Below are positions 1,414 through 19,434 of a stretch of DNA of 21,008 bases, in pieces. A model generated the notes under the pieces. That model was not told where the DNA came from. It saw only the letters and a list, made by a program, of their open reading frames with translations, and did not search any database. The DNA comes from a virus (Duplodnaviria > Heunggongvirae > Uroviricota > Caudoviricetes): the IMG/VR virus record IMGVR_UViG_2671180458_000004. The stretch is one strand, 5' to 3'. Made by a program: the position numbers and the translations under genes. The stretch's first letter is position 1. Every line of letters starts with the position of its first letter.

Positions 1414-2361
1414 TTACAGATAATCCGCGACAACCAGCTCCAGCTTGCCCTTCATCTCGTTAGAGACGGTTGCGTTTCCGTCTGCGAACAGTTCACGCTC
1501 CAGCAACTGCACCGCCTGTTTTTCCAGCGAGGTGGGGACAACAATATGGGTGGGTTTAATGCCGAGTTTGCGGCCACCGTCAGCGGTAAATTCGCGCATG
1601 GCTGACCAGCCGTGCCACAGTGCATCCAGCGTCAGCGGTGACTGCATCATGTAGGCCATCTGCCAGAAGCCGTAGCCCACATTGCGACGGGCGGATGCAC
1701 CAAACACAAATTCGTTATCGGTGAATGCGCGACCTTCATCGACTTTGGTCTGGGCAACCAGTTCAGCCTTACGGCGATCCTGATAAATCAGCGGTTTTAC
1801 CGCGCGTGAACAGTCAAGCAGATACCAGGCCGGACCGCTGTAATCCGCCTGTGCGCCGACAGAGCCGGTTTTTGCCACAAACATATTGCTGACCATCTGC
1901 GCATCCCCGGAGCCATCCACTTTGGGGTAAACCGGATGTTCGGTATCAAAGAAGTTCTGACCGTCATAGCAGGCCGCACTGATCCCGTCACGCAGGGCAG
2001 CAAAGACCAGCTCATCCGGTTGTACCGCCGCAGCGCGCCCCATCTCCTGAAACAACGGGGAATAAATACCGAGGTTGTCGTCTTCGAAGTCATCGCGGCT
2101 AATGGCGACAGTGCCTTCAAAAGTTTTGTTCACGATGGCATAGCCATAGGCTTTCATCTTCTCGATGACGCGGGAGCCGATCCACTCACGGAACTGCGGG
2201 AACTGCCCCAGCCAGCCGTAGGTGTTGGATTTCGAGGTGGAGGGCACGGTCATCGCAATTTTTTTGTACTGCGACGGGGCCATGGACATCCCGGCCTGAA
2301 AATCAGAACGGTAGCCCGTCATCAGGGCGGTGATCATCGCCGGTGTAATCGGGGTAGGCAT
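1414..2361 (-). CDS. T: Major capsid protein (Mu T/gp34-like)
   Basis: 315 aa, close to Mu T (about 305 aa); AGAGGAAA RBS; follows I as in Mu. Confidence 0.9.
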   Translation of the reverse strand: MPTPITPAMITALMTGYRSDFQAGMSMAPSQYKKIAMTVPSTSKSNTYGWLGQFPQFREWIGSRVIEKMKAYGYAIVNKTFEGTVAISRDDFEDDNLGIYSPLFQEMGRAAAVQPDELVFAALRDGISAACYDGQNFFDTEHPVYPKVDGSGDAQMVSNMFVAKTGSVGAQADYSGPAWYLLDCSRAVKPLIYQDRRKAELVAQTKVDEGRAFTDNEFVFGASARRNVGYGFWQMAYMMQSPLTLDALWHGWSAMREFTADGGRKLGIKPTHIVVPTSLEKQAVQLLERELFADGNATVSNEMKGKLELVVADYL

Positions 2362-3494
2362 TATTGCATTTCCTCTTTCATTTTCAGGAACTCGGCTTCG
2401 GTTTTACCCAGCAGATGGGCAGCGGCGATATCTTCAGCCGACAGCGCAGCGGTGGCAGTCTTTTTATCCGGCACGGTCACGGTGTCGGTCTGAAGGCCGG
2501 TCAGGGCCGCAACCGGCTGTCGGGCGTCAAGCTGTGCAGAAAGTGCCGCAACACCAATCTGCCCACCCAGTTGTTCCAGATAGCCGCGTTCGCTTTTGAA
2601 GATGCGCCCTTCGGATTCAGCCTTGTCCAGCACCTGCTCCAGTGTGGTGCTGCCGTGCTGTGCCGACAGCGCAACGTATTCGGTACGCAGGGCGTTATAC
2701 GTTTCAACGGGCACGTATTTCGTCAGATCAATACTGCCTCCAGCCGGTGTGCCTTTTGCGGTTTCCAGCTCTGCCGACAGACTGGCGACCTGTGTTTTCA
2801 GGTTGTCGTGTGCATCCGCACGGGTTTTGATCCCGGTGAGTGCAGACAGCGCCGCCGTGCCCAGCTCCGGCGTAAATTCGTCACCGTCAGCCACGGTCAG
2901 ACCGAGCGCCGTCAGCAACTGGCGTAATTGCTCATTCATGGGGTGTTGCTCCTGAGAAGGGGAAACTACATAGAGATCGTCAGCACTGAGTGCTGCGACA
3001 GGGTTCATACCCGTAATACCTGGATCATTCGTCAGGGAAGCCATGCGCAACAGGTAGGGTTCCCCGGTGTCAGCGAAATAATGCATATACGCAGACAGAT
3101 AGGCATATTCACGGTCATCAATATGTTTTTGGGCCTGCGGCGTCCATTCAGGTTTAATGAAAATCCCCTGACCCTCACGCCATTCGATGTTTTCCGGCTT
3201 AACCCAACCTGCGGCAATGGCCTTAAATCCGTTTTTCTGCGCATTCATGGAGTGATGGTCATAATCAATCAGTAACGGCTGATTCAGGGCGGAAAGCCCG
3301 GCTTTCATCCGGTTGCAGGCGGATTCGTTAATCAGCCAGCCTTCAGCCGGTTTTTCCGGGCGACCGTCACGGGCCTTTACCCTGCCTGCTGGCAGTAACT
3401 GACACCATCCGTCGCCGGATGCAGTCAGCGAAGCTGAAAGCACGGCTAAACCAGAGGGGCGATTTGCGTCTTTTGGGTGATTTTCTGTCTTCAT
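2361..3494 (-). CDS. I: Mu I-like head protease/scaffold protein (gp32-like)
   Basis: 377 aa; stop overlaps the T start (TAATG); no clear SD at the listed start, so the true start may differ. Confidence 0.85.
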   Translation of the reverse strand: MKTENHPKDANRPSGLAVLSASLTASGDGWCQLLPAGRVKARDGRPEKPAEGWLINESACNRMKAGLSALNQPLLIDYDHHSMNAQKNGFKAIAAGWVKPENIEWREGQGIFIKPEWTPQAQKHIDDREYAYLSAYMHYFADTGEPYLLRMASLTNDPGITGMNPVAALSADDLYVVSPSQEQHPMNEQLRQLLTALGLTVADGDEFTPELGTAALSALTGIKTRADAHDNLKTQVASLSAELETAKGTPAGGSIDLTKYVPVETYNALRTEYVALSAQHGSTTLEQVLDKAESEGRIFKSERGYLEQLGGQIGVAALSAQLDARQPVAALTGLQTDTVTVPDKKTATAALSAEDIAAAHLLGKTEAEFLKMKEEMQ

Positions 3495-3669
3495 ACCGGC
3501 AGCATAAGCCGGGAATTTTCAGGGCGGGTTTTGCGGGATTTCAGGAAGTATTTTCAGGGAAAAATGCAAAGGCGCTTCACGCAGATTTTAAAGCCCGTTA
3601 AATACAGGTTAGAAAATCACGACACGCGCCTGAAGGGGGTAAGGTAATGCATTTGCATACCTTAAACAA
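3495..3669 (-). promoter_or_regulatory. Candidate late promoter region upstream of I, with three direct TTTCAGG repeats
   Basis: 175-bp ORF-free gap; TTTCAGG on the plus strand at 3517-3523, 3539-3545 and 3552-3558; short inverted repeat ATGCA-TT-TGCAT at 3647-3658; position corresponds to Mu late promoter P_I. Confidence 0.4.
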
Positions 3670-4143
3670 TTAAGGCGTTTCTGTGGCCTTTTTAAAGCGT
3701 TTTCTGATTTCGTCCATGATCTCCTGCTCTGCCACCTGATCAAAGCCCATATACGGGCGTGCACCAATGGCCGCCGGTCCCGGTGGCATACCGGGCAGGC
3801 CACCCCACTGATGAATGGCCGCATAAGGCTCATTTGATCCAATCAGCGCCCAGGTGTCGCCATAATCCGTGGTCAGGCGTCGGGCCAGATCGCCGTTCAG
3901 CGTCAGGATTTTGCCGGGCATGTATCCCTTACGGGTACGCCACTTGCGGTAAGGATCTGACCAGTCATGCCAGCGTTCGCCGTCCGGCTCTTTTTCCTGT
4001 TCAAACGCCATTTCTGAGGATGACAGAAGGCTGGACGCCACACTGCGGGCCAGGTCTTTTCCGCCACCCACAAACTGAAGCCGGGCAAAGACCCGCTGGA
4101 GACGCGTAACGTCAACAACGACAGCGGCATCAATGGATGACAT
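3670..4143 (-). CDS. G: Mu G-like virion morphogenesis protein (gp31-like)
   Basis: 157 aa, the size of Mu G; GGAGG about 5 nt upstream of the ATG. Confidence 0.85.
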   Translation of the reverse strand: MSSIDAAVVVDVTRLQRVFARLQFVGGGKDLARSVASSLLSSSEMAFEQEKEPDGERWHDWSDPYRKWRTRKGYMPGKILTLNGDLARRLTTDYGDTWALIGSNEPYAAIHQWGGLPGMPPGPAAIGARPYMGFDQVAEQEIMDEIRKRFKKATETP

Positions 4144-16618: not shown

Positions 16619-17149
16619 TTATTTATTCAGTCCGGCGTCCTGTTCAAAAGGCTCGACATGAAAACTTTCAGCACCTTTATTCACCTTAATACCAGCAACC
16701 CCTTTCACCGCATCCGGCTCCGCCAGGACAGCTTGCTTATTCACTTCCTCTTTCGTGCGGATGAAGCGCTCAAGCCCCATACGACGCAGCATTTCAATCA
16801 CACCTTCCACATCACGACTGACGCTGCATGATGGATTTCCCAGCCGCCATGACACCGTTCCGGTGGTCAGATTGGCAGTTTTGGTTTCGCCGCCGTTCGT
16901 CAGCTCATTGCGGTTGGTTTTACACCAGTCATGAATCCCCTTAAAAAGCACTTTGATTTCTTTTTTAAGGTTTTCAATCTGCGGCGTATAACGGGCGGTG
17001 ATTTCTGCCACTTCATCATTCATTGCCGTTTCCAGGCGCAGCGCCTCTCGCTGAATATCGCCCAGGGTGCGGATATCGCGGCTGACCTCTTCACGGGTCT
17101 GCGGTGCCGCCTCTGCTGCGGCCTTTAATTTTGTAACGCGTTTTGCCAT
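16619..17149 (-). CDS. gam: Host-nuclease inhibitor Gam (Mu Gam family, Ku-like DNA end-binding protein)
   Basis: 176 aa, the size of Mu Gam; sequence recalled as Gam family; AAGGAAAAA RBS upstream of the ATG. Confidence 0.85.
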   Translation of the reverse strand: MAKRVTKLKAAAEAAPQTREEVSRDIRTLGDIQREALRLETAMNDEVAEITARYTPQIENLKKEIKVLFKGIHDWCKTNRNELTNGGETKTANLTTGTVSWRLGNPSCSVSRDVEGVIEMLRRMGLERFIRTKEEVNKQAVLAEPDAVKGVAGIKVNKGAESFHVEPFEQDAGLNK

Positions 17150-17160
17150 TTTGTTTTTCC

Positions 17161-17454
17161 TTATTGCAATGTATCTGGTCCGTTCTGAACAGAACGGCGT
17201 TCAACGGAGCTGCTTACCCCCATGGCCTGCATGGAACCCTGTAGTTCATCTGTCAGAAACTGAATGATTGTGGGGCTGTGATATTTAAGAATTTGTGCAT
17301 AAACATCACAGGGTCCTGCCGGTCTGTTCTCTGTATCACGTTCGATTTTTACCGTGGCAGTAACCCCCTCCGTGATTTCCTTACTATCATTACCGGCTGG
17401 CTTTACTTCATGCATTACGTGGTCAAATTCAAAAATAACGCGTACTTTGCTCAT
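17161..17454 (-). CDS. Hypothetical early protein (about 97 aa), paralog of the adjacent gene
   Basis: Start moved to the second ATG (17454): it aligns with the paralog's N-terminus, has AGGGG about 8 nt upstream and avoids a 23-nt overlap. Confidence 0.6.
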   Translation of the reverse strand: MSKVRVIFEFDHVMHEVKPAGNDSKEITEGVTATVKIERDTENRPAGPCDVYAQILKYHSPTIIQFLTDELQGSMQAMGVSSSVERRSVQNGPDTLQ

Positions 17455-17458
17455 GGAA

Positions 17459-17731
17459 TTACCCCTGTTGATTAAATTCATTACCGTTAATAACCCCGGA
17501 ACTCATGTCCATATCTTTCATGAGCGCACTGGCTTTCATTGCCACAAGTTCAGCAAAGTCTCTGCTTTCCGCGAGCATAACCACCCCAAAAATCATGGCG
17601 GGTCCATCACCTTTCTGCTTTATCCCGGTTGAACGTATGTCCAGACTTACCCCCATGCGCACTGTTCCATCAGCGTTTTTATGGATAACGTGCTCCTTGT
17701 ATTCGAAAATAATGCGTACGACTTTACTCAT
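17459..17731 (-). CDS. Hypothetical early protein (90 aa), paralog of the adjacent gene
   Basis: N-terminus MSKVVRIIFEYKEHVIHK resembles MSKVRVIFEFDHVMHEVK of the 17161..17454 product; C-terminal MKDMDMSSGV versus MQAMGVSSSV. Confidence 0.6.
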   Translation of the reverse strand: MSKVVRIIFEYKEHVIHKNADGTVRMGVSLDIRSTGIKQKGDGPAMIFGVVMLAESRDFAELVAMKASALMKDMDMSSGVINGNEFNQQG

Positions 17732-18009
17732 CCTCTGGTCCTCGTTCTGTTTGGATAACTGACCCGGCGTCTGACCTCACGGCAGAACCGAATCATGGCA
17801 TTAAAGGCTTCTTCCTCCGTCACCGCTTCCGGTATCCCCGGAACCAGTAACTGCTCCTGTTCATCACGTCCATGACGCGCCATAACCTCAATCACATGCC
17901 GTACTGTGGCAGGCTTTCCGGCAACTATCGGCAATGCACCTTCCGGCAGGACGTAACCCAGTTCAATGAGACCGCTCGACCACGCCCACGCAATTAGATT
18001 TCGTTTCAC
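17728..18009 (-). CDS. Hypothetical early protein (93 aa), GTG start
   Basis: GTG at 18009 preceded by GGGAGGAG; stop overlaps the next start (ATGA). Confidence 0.55.
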   Translation of the reverse strand: MKRNLIAWAWSSGLIELGYVLPEGALPIVAGKPATVRHVIEVMARHGRDEQEQLLVPGIPEAVTEEEAFNAMIRFCREVRRRVSYPNRTRTRG

Positions 18010-18010
18010 C

Positions 18011-18265
18011 TCACTCCTCCCAGTAAACCGTGCAGCCGCTGATGCGGGTAGCCTTCACACGGCGGCGCAGGCCGTTGGTCTGTATGGTGATTTCAATTTC
18101 ACCGGTTCCCTTAACTTCGCTTACCGGCGGCGTGGTTTTCAGGGCATAACGTTGTGGGTAGCGTTTGCTGCGTTCCAGTACCGCACCGGCAAGTTCAGTC
18201 AGACGGCGTGCACTGTTCAGGGAGTCGAATAAATTCATTTTTTTACCGCAGGATTGCATATTCAT
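18011..18265 (-). CDS. Hypothetical early protein (about 84 aa)
   Basis: ORF 18011..18277; the internal ATG at 18265 is preferred because GAGGTG lies about 5 nt upstream; the stop is 1 nt before the next gene's start. Confidence 0.5.
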   Translation of the reverse strand: MNMQSCGKKMNLFDSLNSARRLTELAGAVLERSKRYPQRYALKTTPPVSEVKGTGEIEITIQTNGLRRRVKATRISGCTVYWEE

Positions 18266-18277
18266 ATAACACCTCAT

Positions 18278-18505
18278 TTAGCTGACTTGTTTCGCACCAA
18301 CAGAACGGCATATTCCGCTGTAAACTTCTGTCGCACCTTCGCGATCAAGTCCGGCAGATATCACCATTCGTGTGCGGTCATTAAATTCAAAAAGTAAATC
18401 GCCACATTCTTTATTTTCGGCCAGTGAAATCACCTTCACGTTATCGAAATTAACCAGGTAAAAGCGTCCGTAAATATCAGGAATATTAAATACCGCCATA
18501 ATCAC
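18278..18505 (-). CDS. Small early protein at the kil position of Mu (75 aa); function not established
   Basis: GTG at 18505 overlaps the B stop (GTGA); an in-frame ATG at 18499 with AGGTG upstream is an alternative start. Kil-like only by position and size. Confidence 0.5.
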   Translation of the reverse strand: MIMAVFNIPDIYGRFYLVNFDNVKVISLAENKECGDLLFEFNDRTRMVISAGLDREGATEVYSGICRSVGAKQVS

Positions 18506-19434
18506 ACCTGTGAGAGTAATTCAGGGTTGGTATAAACCTCTTTAAAGGCCGCATTAATATGTTTTTCTGTCAGCGCCGCGCCTTCACCGCTGGCGGTGAG
18601 CCACGCCTGGTTAAGCGTATGTGTCAGAACGCGTAACGCTCCCGGCTTTTCAGCGATAGCCTGCATGACGGCCAGCTCGGCCTCACCACTGATCCCCCAC
18701 GCCCTGGCAATGGCCAGCACATCCGCCTTTTTGGCCTTGCGAAGTTGTTTTGTACGGGCAAGACGGCTGAACAGGCGCGATAAATCATCAAAGGCGCGGC
18801 GTCCACCTTTAAACAATCCGCGCGGGTTACCAATAAGCACCATCCCGATCCCCGTGGCGTCCTGAATTGCCCGGAGTTGCTCCAGACCGTCAATACCAAG
18901 ATGATCCGCCTCATCCACAATCACCAGTCCACGCGTTCCCATCAGGCGACGGCGGATGGCGCGGGATAATGCCCCTTTGTTCGCGCGGGTGTAATCAATC
19001 CCCAGCGCATCGGCCAGCTCCAGCAGACACTCCGTGACGCTGGAGTGCGCGGGTGACAGGGTGATCATCCAGGTGTTTGGTTGCTCCTGGCAGTAATTAC
19101 GGGCAGTGGCCGTTTTACCCACACCCGGTACGCCCACAATAACGTTAATACAGCCCATCAGACGAACCGCCTGAAACAGTGTGCGCAGCTCCTGGACTGT
19201 CTGCGTTTCCACAAACTGCGGCGGTTCCGGCAGTGCGCTTTGTTTATTCCAGTTCTCATACCAGGAACGCAGGGAAGCAGCCACAGCAGCGTTATCGCCT
19301 TTATATTTTCCCTTACGGAAAGCCGATAATGTGCCGTCGGAAATTCCCGCCTCTCTGGCGATGGCATACTGCGTCAGTACGCCGCCATCAATAAGTTCAT
19401 CAATGGTCTTGATTACATCGTTAATATCAGTCAT
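18502..19434 (-). CDS. B: Mu B-type transposition target-DNA activator, AAA+ ATPase
   Basis: 310 aa; Walker A GVPGVGKT and Walker B-like LVIVDEADHL visible; N-terminal HTH-like segment; directly downstream of A; GAGG about 9 nt upstream of ATG. Confidence 0.92.
   Translation of the reverse strand: MTDINDVIKTIDELIDGGVLTQYAIAREAGISDGTLSAFRKGKYKGDNAAVAASLRSWYENWNKQSALPEPPQFVETQTVQELRTLFQAVRLMGCINVIVGVPGVGKTATARNYCQEQPNTWMITLSPAHSSVTECLLELADALGIDYTRANKGALSRAIRRRLMGTRGLVIVDEADHLGIDGLEQLRAIQDATGIGMVLIGNPRGLFKGGRRAFDDLSRLFSRLARTKQLRKAKKADVLAIARAWGISGEAELAVMQAIAEKPGALRVLTHTLNQAWLTASGEGAALTEKHINAAFKEVYTNPELLSQV

Follow-up and report, generated by a model that had tools for sequence, protein, structure and literature searches.

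Two tandem, distantly related genes in the gp7 slot of a Mu-like Escherichia coli prophage

Two adjacent genes upstream of gam

The window, by which we mean the whole 21,008-nucleotide stretch of DNA that was analysed (IMG/VR record IMGVR_UViG_2671180458_000004), is a Mu-like E. coli prophage whose early genes are read on the minus strand. On that strand, the gene for the MuB transposition ATPase (18502-19434) is followed by a 75-amino-acid (aa) open reading frame (ORF) assigned to phrog_3375 (18278-18505), a Kil-like ORF of 88 aa (18011-18277; phrog_2679, E=2e-43) and a 93-aa phrog_1518 gene (17728..18009; E=3e-42). Directly downstream of the phrog_1518 gene lies gene A (17459..17731), the strongly diverged upstream member of the pair studied here, which encodes a 90-aa protein beginning MSKVVRIIFEYKEH. 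The downstream member, gene B (17161..17454), encodes a 97-aa protein beginning MSKVRVIFEFDH. The gam gene (16619..17149; Mu Gam family, PF07352, E=2.6e-39; phrog_491) is directly downstream of B and is followed by a phrog_2260 gene and then by a Mu gp11-like gene. The initial annotation had reported two adjacent products at 17161-17731, and both ORFs are present there on the minus strand, with N-termini that match its quotations exactly. It had also placed the pair between the kil position and gam. This holds in outline, but the first ORF after MuB is not the Kil-like gene, which comes second and lies two genes upstream of A. Since the Mu kil position (directly after MuB) holds the phrog_3375 ORF in the window, the kil position and the Kil homologue do not coincide here.

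The start of A overlaps the stop of the phrog_1518 gene by 4 nt (ATGA), and a 4-nt spacer (17455..17458, minus strand) separates the stop codon of A (TAA) from the start of B. The A-B spacing of 4 nt is kept in about 40 loci. A Shine-Dalgarno-like GGGG run for B was found inside the last codons of A (AACAGGGGTAATTCCATG). Neither strand has a promoter-like site between 16400 and 18700, and the minus strand has no terminator-like site in this interval. In view of the start/stop spacing and the lack of intervening signals, the simplest reading is that the genes belong to the early operon, and we infer that A and B would be cotranscribed with the flanking early genes. In a mechanical ORF list, B begins at an upstream ATG at 17481 and is 106 aa long; the 97-aa start (MSKVRV) was preferred on the basis of the RefSeq/PGAP annotation of relatives and the family alignment.

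The location of the pair is that of the gp7 slot, which comes after MuB, kil and the phrog_1518/gp6 gene and is followed, directly or at a short distance, by gam or a DUF3164 gene. The same slot order was seen in Mu, Mu_3F6, Salmonella, Yersinia, Serratia and Citrobacter. In reference Mu, the slot is occupied by Mup07, or gp7 (old name E6; NP_050611.1; 87 aa; NC_000929 4784..5047), which belongs to phrog_10252. Mu gp7 has been tested as orf63 and named gnarl2 (Silas et al., Nat Commun 2025, PMC12373910; preprint 10.1101/2023.04.06.535777). The stretch from MuB to gam is mosaic as a whole among relatives. Most of them have the phrog_1518 gene, labelled "host nuclease inhibitor" in PHROG; it is missing in STEC2018-553 and OkiPb01677, where a short unannotated gap stands in its place, and some relatives have instead a 139-aa gene near its position.

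Neither A nor B matched anything in Pfam, NCBIfam, PADLOC or a PDB sequence search, and a reading of the two sequences revealed no signal peptide and no membrane-spanning segment in either. B matched phrog_2230 over its full length (E=3.6e-35, residues 3-97 against profile positions 1-88/89), and the 89-aa gp7-slot protein of Escherichia virus Mu_3F6 (LR595867 4881-5150) matched the same profile (E=6e-36). Other members of phrog_2230 are proteins of 96-99 aa from Salmonella and Citrobacter Mu-like prophages. B resembles these proteins in its slot before gam/DUF3164, its size, its N-terminal strand and its GP...Y/L.A.IL...P.II.F/K motifs; it differs from other carriers of phrog_2230 in its tandem arrangement, which was seen only in the E. 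coli lineage. A was assigned to phrog_4107 (E=2.2e-60). Neither protein matched the other's PHROG at E<0.1, so membership of phrog_2230 by HMM is limited to B.

A word-indexed search with the family alignment recovered 103 B-family proteins, from Salmonella, E. coli, Yersinia, Cronobacter and Serratia. Many are 96-99-aa variants from Salmonella enterica, and the Serratia form is 87 aa long; in E. coli, Yersinia and Cronobacter the proteins are 88-89 aa, the group that includes Mu_3F6, with some of 103-111 aa. A narrower family alignment, applied to species-representative genomes, matched only Citrobacter braakii. For A, a word-index search of 5.8 billion proteins returned 41 homologues, which are 68-100% identical and all from E. 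coli where the organism is named. A was present in 41 IMG/VR loci and in two of 50,697 phage records, both of them Mu-like inserts in Stx phages, and it was found in none of 185,579 species-representative genomes. Wherever downstream sequence was available, B followed A by 4 nt. Among 5,426 complete E. coli genomes, the A+B region was detected in 232, many of which are O157:H7 or belong to other STEC strains, in up to four copies per genome; the A+B query was covered to at least 80% in 226 of the 232. The lineage that carries the pair is presumably an Sp18-type Mu-like prophage.

Relationship of the two products to each other and to Gnarl2

BLASTP aligned A and B at 26% identity over 86 aa (E=3e-6). 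The Smith-Waterman score of the pair was 65, compared with 24.3+-4.3 for shuffled sequences, and none of 5,000 shuffles reached it (z=9.5). With the first 18 residues removed, z was 3.0 and 65 of 5,000 shuffles reached the observed score. Family profiles were compared with hhalign, using 40 column permutations as the control. A wide B-family profile (84 sequences, Neff 3.8) aligned with the A family at 89-92% probability (E about 1e-6) over 76-77 collinear columns, with a score of 37.9 against 11.7+-2.5 for the permuted profiles. When the first 14 columns were removed, the score was 23.7 against 10.6+-2.0, and none of the 40 permutations, whose maximum was 16.1, reached it. Shallow profiles, built from close E. 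coli homologues only, aligned just 15 N-terminal columns, a result superseded by the deeper B profile. The wide B-family HMM scored A variants mostly at 13-25 bits, and an 11-sequence B HMM scored them at 14-22 bits compared with a maximum of 10.4 among 2,000 shuffles. HMMER, run with the E. coli B profile against 1.84 billion representatives, gave 11 matches; A was absent from these and so is not linkable to B by HMMER at database scale. By profile-profile homology over most of its length, above permutation controls, A is a remote relative of the phrog_2230 family.

The similarity peaks at the N-terminus yet extends beyond it, as it is still significant once the N-terminus has been removed. 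The related N-termini pointed out in the initial annotation are the strongest part of the match by both Smith-Waterman and hhalign. The first 11 codons of A (17699..17731; counterpart in B, 17425-17454; both minus strand) are the stretch most like the 5' end of B, at the protein and the DNA level. In the DNA alignment of the 5' ends, A reads ATGAGTAAAGTCGTACGCATTATTTTCGAATAC, and B reads ATGAGCAAA and, after a gap of three positions, GTACGCGTTATTTTTGAATTT. Codon usage was examined for signs that the 5' ends had recently undergone gene conversion, and the argument was dropped; the same codon is used at five of seven identical residues, and these are too few. The C-terminal ends, which had also been described as related, proved to be the weakest part of the similarity. 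The extreme C-terminal tails are not conserved within the A family or within the B family, and the match consists of a single Gly, invariant in the B family, which the A-family consensus shares (RGM) but for which the A protein of the window has Asp.

AlphaFold2 models of the two proteins have the same topology. For B (pLDDT 84.2), beta-strands are predicted at residues 4-20 and 24-39 and helices at residues 48-58 and 60-77; for A (pLDDT 62.7), strands are predicted at residues 3-18 and 24-38 and a helix at residues 57-73. Both proteins are thus predicted to consist of a long N-terminal beta-hairpin and then helices. The low pLDDT for A stems from its shallow alignment, and at this value the A model was too weak to be accepted as a structure-search query. 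The structure searches provided no mechanistic lead. Within the hydrophobic core of the B family, V6, F8, F10 and G79 are invariant and V35, A53, I55, P61, I63 and E70 nearly so; the hairpin surface and the tail are variable.

The similarity between A and B is therefore neither confined to a few residues nor insignificant against shuffled controls, which confirms the paralogy proposed from the sequence at the outset. We conclude with high confidence that A and B are homologues along most of their length, and hence distantly related paralogues.

Gnarl2 is like A and B in its slot, its operon and its similar size (87 aa), and it starts M-A/S-K-V-I-x-E and ends in His, as do many B-family members. 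Neither A nor B matched phrog_10252 at E<0.1, and Gnarl2 matched phrog_2230 at E=0.009 only. A Gnarl2 profile made from 15 IMG/VR variants aligned with the B family in hhalign at 86-88% (E about 4e-6) over 69-70 columns. Without the first 14 columns, the score was marginal (14.9, compared with 10.3+-1.8 and a maximum of 14.4 for the permuted profiles), and HMMER scores between the two families were at most about 12 bits. Gnarl2 thus differs from B in its separate PHROG and in a similarity that is marginal past the N-terminus, and it differs from A in that the profile comparison of the two gave no significant similarity. In view of the separate PHROG and of a signal that comes mostly from the N-terminal 14 residues and from position, we treated Gnarl2 as a probable remote relative and positional equivalent rather than as a member of the family of A and B. 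Judged from these alignments, a remote relationship between Gnarl2 and the B family is probable.

Mu (NC_000929) and Mu_3F6 are 97-100% identical on the flanks of the gp7-slot gene and 20-50% identical inside it. The high identity breaks off about 17 nt past the gp7 ATG and returns at the stop codon, and these are the cassette boundaries (Mu locus 1485-1748 versus 2495-2764 in the locus from LR595867). The slot contents of the two phages, Gnarl2/phrog_10252 and phrog_2230, are unalignable, and the difference amounts to an exact gene-length cassette swap.

Selection, alleles and origin of the pair

In about 40-50 loci, A keeps its length of 90 aa and B its length of 97 aa, and the start/stop spacing is conserved. 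The pN/pS ratio, calculated as the mean over unique alleles, was 0.48 for B and 0.33 for A, compared with 0.14 for the phrog_1518 gene and 0.09 for gam, and pairwise omega was 0.17-0.5 for most pairs. Together with the allele data, these ratios indicate that A and B both function as coding genes, under a constraint that is relaxed or in part diversifying; selection on A and B is purifying but relaxed. The initial annotation had associated the duplication with host-driven selection and had called for dN/dS values across homologous prophages. The whole-gene pN/pS values do place A and B above their neighbours, but all are below 1 and the B alleles are old, and they give no sign of gene-wide positive selection.

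LC727881 is the phage record closest to the window. The two sequences are 93-100% identical to either side of B and 58-73% identical inside it (17161-17454 of the window against 3562-3855 of the LC727881 locus), where there are no gaps and the edges coincide with the gene boundaries. Across about 50 loci, B falls into two allele classes that share about 59% protein identity, and there are recombinants such as P0046. The window carries type 1, the rarer class (12 of 52 loci); the other 40 carry type 2. The two classes are separated by a dS of 0.9-1.2 and a dN of about 0.31 (omega about 0.3), and positive selection as the source of the divergence island in B was rejected on account of the dS and omega values. 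The divergence of B comes from old alleles that recombination has moved as exact gene-length cassettes, not from quick change of the gene in situ. Each A type was seen with each B type, which makes four pairings.

Broken forms of A, with a frameshift, a truncation or loss of the stop codon, were found at four loci (L009, L049, L082 and L006), and a truncated B at one only (L046). In L009, A is frameshifted (1860-2131); in L006, it has no stop codon and extends as a 100-aa ORF that overlaps B (1830-2132). In a further genome (L014, NZ_AP045822), A is replaced or disrupted by the IS66-family element ISEc22 (2234-3772). B is intact in each of these three genomes. As B stays intact in loci with a broken A, A appears to be dispensable for the keeping of B.

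Outside the E. coli prophage lineage that carries A+B, the gp7-slot gene was single-copy in every relative examined. Two architectures were seen in Salmonella, one with Kil, a B-like gene and DUF3164 and the other with Kil, a phrog_1518-like gene, a B-like gene and Gam. Citrobacter braakii has one slot gene, B-like, between a phrog_1518-like gene and DUF3164, and there is one gp7-slot gene each in Yersinia (with a Mu-like order), Serratia and Mu. E. coli STEC299 (NZ_CP022279, from Marmota) has one 98-aa gene (1862-2158) between a phrog_1518-like gene and Gam. In the single-copy relatives STEC299, Salmonella and Citrobacter, the phrog_1518 gene directly precedes the B-type gene. The upstream sequence and the first 18 nt of the STEC299 gene are A-like, and the remainder is B-like. 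This gene is either the ancestral single copy or the product of an A/B crossover deletion in the shared 5' segment; for the latter, the 5' segment of A is a possible crossover point.

No A-type gene was found as a singleton in the 5.8-billion-protein search, the 50,697 phage records, IMG/VR or the 185,579 species genomes. Because B is single-copy elsewhere and A occurs only upstream of B in the E. coli lineage, the best reading is a lineage-specific tandem duplication with asymmetric divergence, and it is probable that this duplication took place in situ in the E. coli prophage lineage. The tandem paralogy with later diversification suggested by the initial annotation is upheld by the nearly full-length homology, the common predicted topology and the single copy in relatives outside the lineage. 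In the E. coli lineage, an ancestral single gene (98 aa, MSK-I/V-VRVIFEF...) would have given rise to two copies by duplication. Of these, the upstream one, A, would have diverged fast, and the downstream one, B, would have stayed recognisable within the family and lost one codon near its start.

It is also conceivable, if unlikely, that separate Mu-like phages once carried A and B as alternative slot alleles, which diverged there and were joined later by unequal or illegitimate recombination between co-resident prophages. The slot is an exact cassette-exchange site, both between Mu and Mu_3F6 and in the A+B lineage; E. coli genomes contain up to four copies of the region; and crossover could take place at the 5' ends of the slot genes, which remain similar. 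The A HMM scored best on Salmonella-type members (18.3 bits, compared with at most 9.3 bits for the adjacent B alleles), which fits such a joining no less than duplication in place, and A is too diverged for a reliable tree. Such a joining is opposed by the failure to find an A-type gene as a singleton or outside the tandem in any database searched and by the coverage of at least 80% of the A+B query in 226 of the 232 matching E. coli genomes.

That A and B share no ancestor at all, their common MSKV-R-IFE start having converged through the demands of translation initiation or of the first beta-strand and the rest being chance, is very improbable. The two proteins do belong to separate PHROG families, profile-to-sequence scores are marginal without the N-terminus, and shallow profiles aligned at the N-terminus only. 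Convergence is nonetheless contradicted by the long collinear alignment obtained with the deeper B profile (89-92%), by the score of 23.7 without the first 14 columns, well over the permutation maximum, and by the agreement of two independent structure predictions on the positions of the hairpin.

We give equally little credence to the idea that the genes form a two-gene module, such as a toxin-antitoxin system, an effector-immunity pair or an obligate heterodimer. The tight 4-nt spacing and the constant co-occurrence of A with B would suit a module, and gnarl2 was among genes lethal in some hosts (preprint 10.1101/2023.04.06.535777). However, A and B are homologous to each other, the slot family occurs as a single gene in all other lineages, B is intact where A is frameshifted, truncated or replaced by an IS66-family element, and neither protein matched a defence or toxin-antitoxin family in PADLOC, Pfam or NCBIfam. 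Finally, despite the occasional broken A and the one truncated B, it is scarcely credible that one or both ORFs are functionless remnants, given the lengths kept in about 40-50 loci, the conserved start/stop spacing and pN/pS ratios of 0.33 and 0.48, below 1 even with pS up to 0.38-0.6.

Proposed function of the slot genes

Taken together, the data favour the view that A and B are tandem paralogues of the gp7-slot accessory family in the Pe operon of Mu-like transposable phages, to which, as a whole explanation, we assign a probability of roughly 0.6. Their function was considered by analogy with Gnarl2. Expression of Gnarl2 shifts the O-antigen bands down in ECOR1 and ECOR22 and raises T5 infection 1e5-1e6-fold in both strains; AP-MS on Gnarl2 yielded no target (PMC12373910). 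gnarl2 had been picked as an accessory gene that is hypervariable while its surroundings are conserved (PMC12373910), which is also the pattern of the A/B locus. A Gnarl2-like function of A and B at the host envelope, affecting O-antigen or lipopolysaccharide (LPS), is on this analogy a tentative proposal.

Other small phage proteins offer parallels. Like A and B, Mu Kil is a small early-operon protein encoded downstream of the transposition genes, and it binds host proteins. Tip of Pseudomonas phage D3112 and Aqs1 of DMS3 are small early host-modifying proteins of transposable phages that likewise bind host proteins and whose genes lie in the early operon past the transposition genes. Kil, Tip and Aqs1 have no sequence relation to A and B, and the comparison is one of analogy.

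In the proposed mechanism, A and B, produced soon after induction or infection, would act not as enzymes but by binding host factors, and this binding would alter the cell envelope (O-antigen/LPS) in the manner of Gnarl2. The conserved core (V6, F8, F10, V35, A53, I55, P61 and I63) would act as a scaffold. The variable hairpin surface and the C-terminal tail may determine target specificity, that is, which host variants are recognised, and two diverged copies could cover a wider range of such variants. A more speculative extension, which we consider doubtful, is that the gp7 slot is a dedicated exchange site for small host-surface effectors in which the conserved first 15-20 nt and the first beta-strand form the fixed swap boundary. 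In E. coli, the slot would have been expanded to two diverged Gnarl-like proteins that act on different O-antigen/LPS variants or that form a heterodimer. If this were true, the prophage would gain broader or new non-enzymatic seroconversion or superinfection exclusion.

A and B are an ordinary pair in a known, fast-changing accessory slot of Mu and not a new system. They represent an expected kind of phage gene duplication, and the finding alone leaves current understanding unchanged. Small hypervariable accessory genes of phages are a main source of host-takeover and counter-defence functions, and Mu gp7 (Gnarl2), which occupies this very slot in Mu, alters the O-antigen by a route that appears to be non-enzymatic. 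A, both B types, their recombinants and the single gene of STEC299 make up a natural panel of variants for work on targets and specificity.

In some Salmonella prophages (L016 and L017) and in a Citrobacter braakii prophage (L083), a 212-aa DUF3164 protein replaces Gam after the slot gene. With DUF3164 in place of Gam, the position that follows the gp7 slot is exchangeable as well.
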